A stretch of 5,813 bases of DNA from IMG/VR virus record IMGVR_UViG_3300045988_025734, one strand, 5' to 3'. The notes below the pieces were generated by a model. It was not told where the DNA came from. It saw nothing but the letters and a program-made list of their open reading frames with translations, and did not search any database. Numbering within the stretch: the first letter of the stretch is position 1; every line of letters begins with the position of its first letter. A program made the position numbers and the translations under genes. This stretch comes from a virus. This document shows positions 4,739 through 5,813 of this stretch, in pieces.

Positions 4739-4930
4739 TTACATCCACATTATTTTGTTTTCATCTTCGTTTTCTAGCTGGTTGATTCTCTGTCTGGATA
4801 GCTCGCCACTTCGGTTCGTCCAGCACCTCAATTTTTTGTCGTAGGTATAAGGATAATAGATATACCCGTCAATATCTGAATGATAACATTTTACTTTTTT
4901 GTTTTCGGTGTATTCGTAGTGGCTTTTCAT
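4739..4930 (-). CDS. Hypothetical protein orf63 (63 aa), Tyr-rich N-terminal half and acidic C-terminal helix; first gene after the promoter.
   Basis: ATG 4930 is preceded by AGAGAGGTAAAAACA (GAGG SD, 8-nt spacing) and lies about 25 nt downstream of the consensus promoter -10. The stop is 19 nt before the peptidase ATG. No motif recognised. Confidence 0.65.
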   Translation of the reverse strand: MKSHYEYTENKKVKCYHSDIDGYIYYPYTYDKKLRCWTNRSGELSRQRINQLENEDENKIMWM

Positions 4931-4955
4931 TGTTTTTACCTCTCTTTCTGGTTAT

Positions 4956-4984
4956 ATTATAGCATTTCTCTTTACAATTGTCAA
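4956..4984 (-). promoter_or_regulatory. Main promoter: perfect -35, 17-nt spacer, extended -10.
   Basis: The coding strand reads TTGACA (4984..4979) attgtaaagagaaaTGc TATAAT (4961..4956). Both hexamers are consensus, the spacer is 17 nt, and a TGn extended -10 is present. It lies at the downstream end of the only long non-coding region, directly ahead of the gene array. Confidence 0.8.
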
Positions 4985-5045
4985 GTTTCAATTTGTACAA
5001 GGTTGCGCAGCAATTTTGTGCAAATTGGAACTTTCGCCGTTAGGC

Positions 5046-5210
5046 GTTTTCAACACTTTCCACATAGTTTTCAACTTTTCCACATTGTTAAACTTTAGCA
5101 CAACAGAGCGTTTCAACAATTCAACAAGGTATTCACAATTCTTTCAACACTGTTTTTGCTACTTTTTTCCGATGCTACGTTAAAAATACAGGTTTTCAAC
5201 TTTTTCACAG
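5046..5210. repeat. Iteron-like array: three 19-20-nt direct repeats plus TTCAAC half-sites.
   Basis: R1 5046..5065 is gttttcaacactttccacat, R2 5067..5085 is gttttcaacttttccacat, and R3 5192..5210 is gttttcaactttttcacag (17/19 identical to R2). Exact TTCAAC starts at 5049, 5070, 5112, 5120, 5143 and 5195, and a variant TTCACA at 5132. Six exact hexamers fall within 152 nt, against a chance expectation of about 0.04. Confidence 0.85.
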
Positions 5211-5214
5211 CCCC

Positions 5215-5250
5215 TACTACTACGACTACAACAAGTTATATAATAATATT
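5215..5250. repeat. (NAC)6 trinucleotide run (5215..5232) followed by an 18-nt pure A/T-rich block (5233..5250).
   Basis: tac tac tac gac tac aac, then aagttatataataatatt. It lies between the iteron array and the GC-rich tract. Confidence 0.7.
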
Positions 5251-5301
5251 ACGCGCGTGCATGTGCGCGCGTCTACGCGTGCGCGTGCGCGTGCGCGTGC
5301 G
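5251..5301. repeat. GC-rich alternating purine-pyrimidine tract containing about 4.5 tandem (G/A)CGCGT hexamers.
   Basis: acgcgcgtgcatgtgcgcgcgt (5251..5272) is 22 nt of strict R-Y alternation and imperfectly self-complementary. After a 2-nt break comes acgcgt gcgcgt gcgcgt gcgcgt gcg (5275..5301), 27 nt of strict R-Y alternation. Its GC content is far higher than the flanking AT-rich sequence. Confidence 0.9.
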
Positions 5302-5313
5302 AATAAACACCAA

Positions 5314-5347
5314 TAGCCTAGTACCTTACTTGATAGGTACTAGGCTA
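5314..5347 (-). terminator. Perfect 12-13-bp hairpin 17 nt downstream of the Rep stop; terminator and/or origin stem-loop.
   Basis: agcctagtacct (5315..5326) / aggtactaggct (5335..5346), plus t5314:a5347, with the 8-nt loop tacttgat. On the coding strand the stem is followed by UUGGUGUUUAUUC, an imperfect U-run. Confidence 0.6.
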
Positions 5348-5363
5348 GGTGACACCAAAAATC

Positions 5364-5813
5364 TTATAAGCCGCCCTTTTGGAGCTTTACAGACTTTTTG
5401 ATAACTCTTTCTTTCGTCTTTAAGTCCTTCTCATAGTCTGCATTTTCGTATTTGAGCCTGTTTTGCTCAATAACTGCTTTCTGTCGGTTCCTCTTGATTC
5501 TCCATAGCCTTTCAGGGTTTTCAGCTTCCATCATTTTTTCGTAGTATCGCGGAATCTGTGCTTTCTTTCCGTTGGTACATTGGATGTAGCCTTTTTGCCA
5601 TATTTCTTTTTTGTGCTCTTGATAATAGGCATCTCCAAGGCCCGGTTTCAGACTCATACATGCAAATGGCTTTTGCTGGCCCAGGTTATAGTATACATTT
5701 GCTTTCTGGCCGTCAATTTCGTACATTTTTTTTGTAACATAGCCTGCAACATATCTATAGGTCTCAGGCGTTGCTTGTGCTATCTGTATTTGACCCATGC
5801 CCCATAGATTGCA
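5364..5813 (-). CDS. VP4: Replication initiation protein VP4, C-terminal part. Same gene as 1..557; the full protein is about 305-318 aa in the circular genome.
   Basis: The frame is open from the window edge to the stop at 5366..5364. The track's Met at 5798 is internal (..NLWGMGQIQIAQATPETYRYVAGYVTKKMYEID..). Bases 5725..5813 duplicate 1..89. The basic C-terminal region (RIKRNRQKAVIEQNRLKYE) is typical of microvirus Reps. Confidence 0.9.
   Translation of the reverse strand, partial: CNLWGMGQIQIAQATPETYRYVAGYVTKKMYEIDGQKANVYYNLGQQKPFACMSLKPGLGDAYYQEHKKEIWQKGYIQCTNGKKAQIPRYYEKMMEAENPERLWRIKRNRQKAVIEQNRLKYENADYEKDLKTKERVIKKSVKLQKGGL
5725..5813. repeat. Terminal redundancy, copy 2 (identical to 1..89).
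   Basis: See copy 1. Confidence 0.95.

Follow-up and report, generated by a model that had tools for sequence, protein, structure and literature searches.

The DNA examined here is a viral stretch of 5,813 nucleotides (nt) from the IMG/VR record IMGVR_UViG_3300045988_025734, referred to below as the window, and the feature of interest is an array of short direct repeats at 5047-5149 together with the elements that follow it up to position 5251. The first 89 nt of the window recur exactly at its end (1-89 and 5725-5813); with this terminal redundancy it represents a complete genome, circular and 5724 nt long. All genes lie on the - strand: Rep/VP4, which spans the circle junction, the VP2 pilot protein, the VP1 capsid protein (Phage_F, E 1e-137), the VP3 scaffold, the small DNA-binding protein VP5, an M15 peptidase and two small open reading frames (ORFs). 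The nearest relative is Gokushovirus WZ-2015a KT264792 from the human gut, which is 94% identical genome-wide, and many faecal gokushoviruses of pig, monkey and human share about 75% identity. The sole long non-coding region, 4931-5363, is located between Rep and orf63 and is bounded, on the coding strand, by the stop codon of Rep and a consensus promoter. A preliminary description of the sequence had placed the array in the only non-coding region, and it does lie there.

Six copies of TTCAAC are present on the + strand, at 5049, 5070, 5112, 5120, 5143 and 5195, and three further copies in the window are all on the - strand elsewhere (expectation for the whole window and both strands, 3.5 +/- 1.7). 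These positions, as well as that of the variant TTCACA at 5132, are as the preliminary description gave them. Its repeats of 19-20 nt are supported by an 18-nt pair (5067-5084 and 5192-5209, 94% alike), by a 15-nt family at 5046, 5067 and 5192, and by a period of 20 with 2.1 copies at 5046-5089 in the TRF search. However, the elementary unit is a 9-mer, (T/C)TTTC(A/C)ACA, which also occurs singly; the apparent 20-21-mer, present in 2.1 tandem copies and one distant copy, is two such 9-mers fused. The copies at 5120 and 5143 had both been set outside the helical phasing, which is correct for 5120, whereas 5143, at an offset of 94 or 8.95 turns, fits the 10.5-bp (base pair) phase.

Read as 9-mers, the region contains eleven starts in the same orientation. 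Nine make up the upstream array on the + strand (5047-5149): TTTTCAACA at 5047, CTTTCCACA at 5056, TTTTCAACT at 5068, TTTTCCACA at 5076, TTTAGCACA at 5094, GTTTCAACA at 5110, AATTCAACA at 5118, GTATTCACA at 5129 and CTTTCAACA at 5141. The other two start at 5193 and 5201. The units resemble binding sites of the bacterial initiator DnaA. The DnaA box TTWTNCACA has only two perfect matches in the genome, at 5076 and 5201, both inside the repeat region, and six of its 23 matches with at most one mismatch fall within 5040-5215, all six on the + strand. As single-stranded DNA the array shows no structure (fold z +0.17), in keeping with the earlier view of it as a set of direct repeats of the protein-binding type. 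The repeats are real and non-random: the array aligns across relatives whose structural genes are far more diverged and is therefore not a chance feature.

Downstream, a box-free spacer of 43 nt on the + strand (5150-5192), in which alignments of relatives show a conserved ...CG..T.ACGTT..., leads to a fused pair of boxes at 5193-5209. Here, TTTTCAACT (5193-5201) and TTTTTCACA (5201-5209) overlap by 1 nt on the + strand, and the contiguous reading is TTTTCAAC-TTTTTCACA. The pair is followed on the same strand by a 4-nt GC-rich gap, GCCC (5210-5213), and by the run CTA CTA CTA CGA CTA CAA CAA (5214-5234), which on the - strand reads 3'-GAT GAT GAT...-5'. The A/T-only 16-mer TTATATAATAATATTA at 5236-5251, the longest such run in the genome, completes the series. 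The 20-bp window 5233-5252 is the least stable of the genome (-17.0 kcal/mol), and the most stable windows follow directly. In all, 5193-5251 reads TTTTCAAC TTTTTCACA GCCC CTACTACTACGACTACAACAAG TTATATAATAATATTA. The preliminary description had overlooked the CTACTACTAC trinucleotide run at 5214-5234 between the last repeat and the AT-rich tract; it is by this run, which links the two, that the architecture is recognised. The geminivirus nonanucleotide TAATATTAC at 5244-5252, inside the AT-rich element, is not conserved in relatives and was set aside as probably a chance match.

This architecture is that of the basal unwinding system (BUS) of bacterial chromosomal origins, which consists of proximal DnaA boxes, often a fused pair, a GC-rich gap of 4-5 bp, at least three DnaA-trios and an AT-rich region (PMC8287927, PMC8235120). 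The trios have the consensus 3'-GAT-5' (3'-NAN-5'), are found on the lower strand in at least three repeats no more than 16 bp from the box, and occupy the strand on which the box reads TGTGGATAA (PMC8287927). The proximal box is allowed up to two mismatches to TTATCCACA or to the motif of the species, and a second, tandem box up to four (PMC8287927). In the window, the proximal box TTTTTCACA has two mismatches to TTATCCACA and none to TTWTNCACA, while most relatives carry TTTTCCACA, with one mismatch. The box fused to it, TTTTCAACT, qualifies as the weaker, optional one, the gap lies within the spacer limit, and three consecutive 3'-GAT-5' trios stand on the - strand in the orientation given in Table S1 of PMC8287927. 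For comparison, this table, which lists the lower strand 3' to 5', was converted to the upper strand. B. subtilis then reads TTATCCACA AATCCACA GGCC CTACTATTACTTCTACTA followed by AT-rich DNA, C. tetani TTATTAACA AATCAACA GCCC CTACTACTATTACTACTA, and Ruminococcus albus has TTTTCAACA GGT TTTTCAACA (PMC8287927). Fused or overlapping boxes next to the unwinding element are known from B. subtilis (boxes 6/7) and H. pylori (ts1/ts2) (PMC8235120). Array, pair, gap, trios and AT-rich element thus occur in the phage in the same order and orientation as in a bacterial oriC, with the same spacing, a fused pair, a 4-nt GC gap and trios that begin CTA CTA CTA. Unlike its bacterial counterpart, the phage module is located on a 5.7-kb rolling-circle single-stranded DNA phage, away from any dnaA or dnaN and joined to a nick hairpin of the HUH-Rep type; its trio run is shorter and continues as the phage-specific CTACAACAAGTTA. 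The bacterial system has been described by Pelliciari 2021 (PMC8287927).

The module is present in at least 79 of 96 related gokushovirus genomes when a strict anchor is applied, the remainder being variants or partial contigs. Mean pairwise nucleotide identity among 63 IMG/VR genomes is 77% for the array and adjacent core, compared with 66% for VP2, 56% for VP1 and 39% for the 150 nt of non-coding DNA to the left of the array; the Rep coding sequence, with 83%, was the criterion by which loci were selected. The block from 5047 to the Rep stop can be aligned across relatives and the promoter side cannot, and in more distant relatives the match corresponds exactly to window positions 5047-5248. 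The presence of the repeats in relatives, which the preliminary description had made a test of its reading, is thereby established. Among 72 distinct arrays of relatives, the median is eight boxes in the same orientation and none inverted, and the sole frequent change within a unit is C<->A at position 6. Within the core, 79 relatives show next to no change in three elements: the pair's first box, TT[TA]TCAAC, the part TTTTCCAC of its second box, and the initial three CTA; the pair thus reads TT[TA]TCAAC-TTTTCCAC[A/T]. More variable are base nine of the second box, the letters of the 4-nt gap and the fourth trio. Trios and box stay the same distance apart though the gap sequence varies, and CTACAACAAGTTA, which follows the trios, is invariant in the phages and not found in host origins. 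This pattern of variation, with near-invariant boxes and first three trios at a fixed distance, fits the functional anatomy of an unwinding module.

Further, the module behaves as a unit. In some gokushovirus clades, represented by KT264800 (L223, mink; 1120-1345) and MG945388 (L224, pig; 1200-1400), array, core and AT-rich element are inverted together and run in gene sense, whereas the hairpin near Rep is oriented as in the window. As it is inverted as a whole in these two genomes, the module is a discrete unit working in either orientation. KT264800 has five trios, with GC-rich tracts flanking the module on both sides. KT264798, with the orientation of the window, has five perfect trios, no GC tract and a hairpin about 15 nt past the AT-rich element.

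Counterparts outside the phages were sought with a 28-nt pattern from the phage core, TCAACTTTTYCACANNNNCTACTACTAC, scanned against 185,579 bacterial and archaeal species represented by one genome each. There were 12 matches, all on bacterial contigs of 24-543 kb, and ten of these are labelled as Clostridia (Ruminococcus sp., R. flavefaciens, Ruminococcaceae, Oscillospiraceae, Eubacteriales and Ca. Improbicoccus). In 11 of the 12, the match adjoins dnaA and/or dnaN, the usual order being dnaA, match, dnaN, recF. Adjacency was recognised with family models on eight contigs (L127-L131, L133, L137 and L138; Pfam Bac_DnaA 1.5e-69 and DNA_pol3_beta 1.2e-34, with NCBIfam DnaA and DnaN equivalogs) and by ORF sequence similarity only on three (L132, L134 and L135). 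A search of the 12 contigs for microvirus VP1, VP2 and VP4 found none. The two contigs with other labels are metagenome-assembled genomes (MAGs): L135, an 'Alistipes' MAG, has a DnaA C-terminus like that of R. flavefaciens and may thus be misbinned, and in L133, a 'Fusobacteriota' MAG, the boxes are of the classic TTATCCACA kind and the core may truly have arisen by convergence.

The host origins read ...TTTTCAACTTTTCCACAGCCCCTACTACTACTACTA and then turn into AT-rich DNA. Their proximal pair is TTTTCAAC-TTTTCCACA, preceded by a box-poor spacer of roughly similar length, and the gap GCCC is identical in eight of the 12. Positions 5193-5228 of the phage are identical at 34 of 36 positions to R. 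flavefaciens and to an Oscillospiraceae MAG, a likeness that is found in the dnaA-dnaN spacer of Ruminococcus and Oscillospiraceae. The upstream clusters share their vocabulary as well: TTTTCAACA occurs 26 times in the 12 host oriCs and 177 times in the 72 phage arrays, CTTTCAACA 17 and 164 times, TTTTCCACA 11 and 34 times, and GTTTCAACA five and 34 times. The same 9-mers thus recur in phage and host in nearly equal rank order, the TTCAACA variants AATTCAACA (36) and ATTTCAACA (35) ranking just above TTTTCCACA and GTTTCAACA in the phages. An nhmmer profile of the 12 oriC segments has its sole match in the phage genome at 5046-5255 (E 8e-21), and a profile of the upstream box clusters alone, from which the selecting pattern had been removed, matches 5046-5141 (E 1.5e-6). 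The genomic context and the upstream box vocabulary are independent of the selecting pattern. As the same 9-mers stand at Clostridia origins without microvirus genes, the repeat vocabulary is that of the host origin and not specific to the replicon. Gut gokushoviruses have been assigned to Clostridiales by CRISPR-based prediction (PMC10159846). The Clostridia host to which the origins point agrees with such predictions, with the TG-extended consensus promoter and with the strong ribosome-binding site (RBS) ahead of orf63.

Collectively, the array is very probably a cluster of binding sites for host DnaA. It is also somewhat more likely than not, with considerably less confidence, that 5047-5251 as a whole is a copy or mimic of a chromosomal origin module of the Ruminococcus/Oscillospiraceae type of Clostridia that serves phage replication. 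The element is a copy or mimic and not a chromosomal origin itself, as it is located on a 5724-nt microvirus circle and not beside dnaA and dnaN. The module suggests that the phage recruits the origin-opening machinery of its host. In the proposed mechanism, DnaA-ATP would fill the boxes of like orientation on the double-stranded replicative form, and a DnaA filament would extend from the proximal pair onto the 3'-GAT-5' trios of the - strand and melt the A/T-only 16-mer, the weakest duplex of the genome. Where present, the alternating (CG/TG)n tract beyond it could bound the bubble. The opened duplex would then serve phage DNA replication, either by loading the host helicase for a DnaA-initiated, theta-type round of the replicative form or by helping to expose the nearby Rep nick hairpin. 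Tentatively, a large clade of gut gokushoviruses may have captured a host origin module and may use it for a DnaA-initiated theta-type stage, or for licensing, beside Rep-driven rolling-circle replication, perhaps also packaging the non-coding strand.

Several observations weigh against this interpretation. The boxes with A at position 6 (TTTTCAACA and most boxes of the array) would be weak sites for E. coli DnaA, and the DnaA boxes of Ruminococcaceae are themselves assigned from their oriC position only. The bacterial loci were retrieved with a pattern derived from the phage, so that their cores match by construction. The window has three consecutive trios, the fourth being CGA, which equals the published minimum of three. 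In the relative L141 (IMGVR_UViG_3300045988_016202), whose Rep is 96% identical, an insertion occupies the place where the trios should be. About six relatives have a single proximal box, an arrangement that the published system permits (PMC8287927). No box-trio module was found in the cultured gokushoviruses Chp2, phiMH2K and SpV4, and hence it is not required for gokushovirus replication generally. Finally, KT264800 and MG945388 carry the module turned round with respect to hairpin and genes, so it is unlikely that its direction must be coupled to the site nicked by Rep. On account of these two genomes, less weight was given to a model with a helicase that is loaded by DnaA and travels to the nick hairpin, and a strictly directional link to the hairpin is not favoured because the module is orientation-independent. 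As regards L141, the insertion is about 70 nt long with a hairpin of its own and replaces the second proximal box and the CTACTACTAC trios (approximately window 5205-5235); it may be a natural knock-out of the core or else an assembly artefact.

The main rival is a pure DnaA sink or sensor, in which the array binds host DnaA without firing as an origin, be it by multicopy titration that blocks host initiation, as at datA, or by coupling phage development to the level of DnaA-ATP. Such a role is considered unlikely, but it is the alternative with the most in its favour: the dense cluster of same-orientation boxes matches host oriC, the module works in either orientation and cultured gokushoviruses replicate without it. 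However, a sink needs boxes only, while conservation in the region is highest in the trios, in the gap of fixed length and in the A/T-only element, and these stand in precisely the order and orientation needed for unwinding. A further alternative holds that the repeats are iterons for a phage protein, with Rep (VP4) or VP5 binding them for rolling-circle origin assembly or packaging and the likeness to oriC being coincidental or secondary. The preliminary description had likewise compared the array with Rep-binding iterons of plasmids or circular Rep-encoding single-stranded (CRESS) DNA viruses. The direct repeats do occupy the sole intergenic region near a nick-type hairpin, and the phage-specific CTACAACAAGTTA is invariant and absent from host oriCs. 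Nonetheless, iterons are improbable here, as the same 9-mers fill the dnaA-dnaN spacer of Clostridia chromosomes without microvirus genes, together with the same pair, gap and trios, and as the distance between array and hairpin is 105-300 nt and their relative orientation can be reversed.

A role in transcription, whereby DnaA or curvature from phased T-tracts regulates the promoter at 4984-4956, is quite improbable. The array is located 62-226 nt upstream of this - strand promoter, which agrees with the consensus at 12 of 12 positions, and its T4 tracts recur about every 10.5 bp, but conservation of the intervening DNA is only 39%, with numerous indels, and in L223 and L224 the module is flipped at about 190 nt from the promoter. 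Regulation would also leave the trios and the unwinding element unexplained, and the earlier suggestion of regulator sites for the promoter downstream finds no support. Recombination or integration at the host origin region through a homology patch is very improbable. Identity to host oriCs does reach 92-94% over 34-39 nt, yet this homology is very short, no microvirus genes are found next to any of the 12 bacterial sites, and the similarity further upstream is one of vocabulary and not of collinear sequence. The least probable explanation, and an extremely improbable one, is that put forward earlier by analogy with phi29, namely that the repeats are 0A-boxes through which Spo0A shuts the phage down in hosts that sporulate. 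On the coding strand the core, TGTTGAA, differs from TGTCGAA by one mismatch, Clostridia, the likely host class, include spore formers, and Spo0A sites overlap DnaA boxes at the B. subtilis oriC. However, the 72 arrays of relatives contain TGTTGAA 447 times and TGTGGAA 47 times, and TGTCGAA is absent from them (0 against 494) and occurs once in the 12 host oriC segments. The diagnostic position toggles between T and G, which are A and C at position 6 of the DnaA box; selection keeps one or the other and never C.

If the region is indeed a host-type origin module, it differs in several ways from known systems. The bacterial basal unwinding system is reportedly exemplified by incC of B. subtilis, as described by Richardson in 2016. 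DnaA boxes are already known in plasmid and P1-type origins; in the theta origins of plasmids and phage-plasmids (P1 oriR, F, pSC101, R6K and RK2), one to a few boxes assist an iteron-bound plasmid initiator. As in these, a mobile replicon here would borrow host DnaA through boxes at its origin, but this replicon, a microvirus, has the whole host-type module and no evident phage-specific iterons. In plasmids and CRESS-DNA viruses, iterons of about 17-22 bp are likewise short direct repeats near a replication origin, but they are replicon-specific and bound by the replicon's own Rep, unlike the host-origin 9-mers of the phage. The E. coli datA locus, at which DnaA is titrated or inactivated, is also a cluster of DnaA boxes outside the origin able to soak up DnaA; it lacks trios and an unwinding element, both of which the phage module has, and it is not opened. 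In searches of the literature on gokushoviruses or Microviridae with DnaA or DnaA boxes and on oriC-like sequences in bacteriophages, no prior report was found, nor did the broader literature on phages and DnaA and on Microviridae origins and hairpins yield anything relevant. A complete host-type module of boxes, trios and unwinding element in a microvirus thus appears to be new.

Microviruses serve as the textbook example of rolling-circle phages and rank with the most abundant viruses in the human gut. They are assumed to replicate by means of their own Rep together with host elongation factors, and a conserved DnaA module would add a step that depends on the host initiator. About 200 of 5724 nt are given over to the module, and it is better conserved than the capsid gene. 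Matching origin mimics of phages to bacterial oriCs would allow hosts of uncultured microviruses to be predicted from sequence only. Further, a multicopy replicative form carrying the module could disturb host initiation. The module may also represent a small, naturally occurring origin cassette that could perhaps replicate in Ruminococcaceae and Oscillospiraceae, two families in which genetic work is difficult.

Beyond the AT-rich element follows the alternating purine-pyrimidine (CG/TG)n tract at 5250-5301, about 50 bp long, where duplex stability reaches its genome-wide maximum, alternating runs are at their longest in the genome (23 and 28 nt) and TRF finds CGCGTG x4.3. As single-stranded DNA, the tract folds no better than shuffled sequences (z -0.10). 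It is present in most relatives and missing in the L035/L222 clade, and hence dispensable in some clades; it could form Z-DNA or serve as a barrier. Next to it, on the + strand, a 13-bp hairpin at 5314-5347 (fold z -6.2) carries an 8-nt loop, TACTTGAT (5327-5334), followed by AGG, both invariant. The stem covaries: 94% of cells are paired, compensatory changes occur at six of its 13 pairs, and 500 shuffles gave no equally good result. In another clade the stem differs and CTTGATAGG is unchanged. The preliminary description had seen in the order of repeats, AT-rich tract, GC-rich tract and hairpin a composite replication origin; this order is confirmed, with ACTTGATA in the hairpin, and the idea holds in part.

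The loop motif ACTTGATA is invariant and is located on the strand antisense to the genes. We take it to be the nick core of the phiX174/pC194 type, which is cut at CTTG^ATA. A near-invariant GGTGACACC at 5349-5357 on the + strand, just 3' of the hairpin, resembles the GAC.AC part of the phiX174 origin 'key' sequence, and the phage is like the 30-nt origin of phiX174 in having both ACTTGATA and a GAC.AC element behind it. The phiX174 origin is located inside gene A on the coding (viral) strand and has neither hairpin nor DnaA boxes; the phage motif, unlike it, belongs to a covarying hairpin and is found on the non-coding strand. As the nick-type motif stands on the antisense strand, which is also T-rich, there is a hint that the strand packaged by the clade may be the non-coding one. 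The coding strand of the window has 36-52% A and 8-12% T at four-fold degenerate sites. In Chp2 and SpV4, it is the coding (viral) strand that is T-rich at such sites (51-65%), and phiMH2K also has A>T, so that the skew is not decisive. The equivalent hairpin of Chp2 has the loop TCTACTTGAT on the coding strand.

On the other side of the array, the promoter TTGACA-17-TGnTATAAT on the - strand (4956-4984), with its 12 of 12 consensus positions and the TG extension, drives orf63, the M15 peptidase and the downstream genes; it lies beside the module but does not belong to it. Its -35 hexamer is overlapped by a 24-bp imperfect hairpin at 4983-5033 (fold z -4.6) that is kept in the closest relatives only. 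The stem contains ATTTGCACA at 5017 on the - strand, a 9-mer one mismatch from a DnaA box, and with this box-like stem the hairpin recalls the 'A-site' primosome signals of single-stranded DNA. At the 'A site' of the ABC-primosome (plasmid R6K), a single-stranded hairpin with a DnaA box lets DnaA prime single-stranded templates, and an inverted box pair in some relatives is similar in kind. The main array, by contrast, consists of direct repeats and, being unstructured as single-stranded DNA, cannot present duplex boxes on a single strand. Two + strand ORFs, 5016-5183 and 5156-5401, were rejected as coding because relatives carry 1-nt and other non-triplet indels there. A search of Rfam with 4900-5420 returned sub-threshold miRNA-hairpin matches only, on the GC tract and on the 4983-5033 hairpin.

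Full oriC-like regions were also seen on three non-microvirus contigs of IMG/VR, L029 (95 kb), L067 (36 kb) and L097 (11.6 kb), which have many TTATCCACA / TGTGGATAA boxes together with a proximal pair, a GC gap and CTACTACTAC. None of these BUS-like contigs, nor L081 (5.8 kb), encodes microvirus proteins, and the regions on the first three may be DnaA-dependent origins of phages or phage-plasmids, or host DNA in viral bins. Among the cultured gokushoviruses, the Chlamydia phage Chp2 (L220) has two tandem TTTTGCACA 9-mers, 12 nt apart, on the - strand at 2828-2848 in the intergenic region between VP3 and ORF8. They are about 60 nt from an origin-type hairpin, in an arrangement opposite to that of the window, and may be DnaA boxes.

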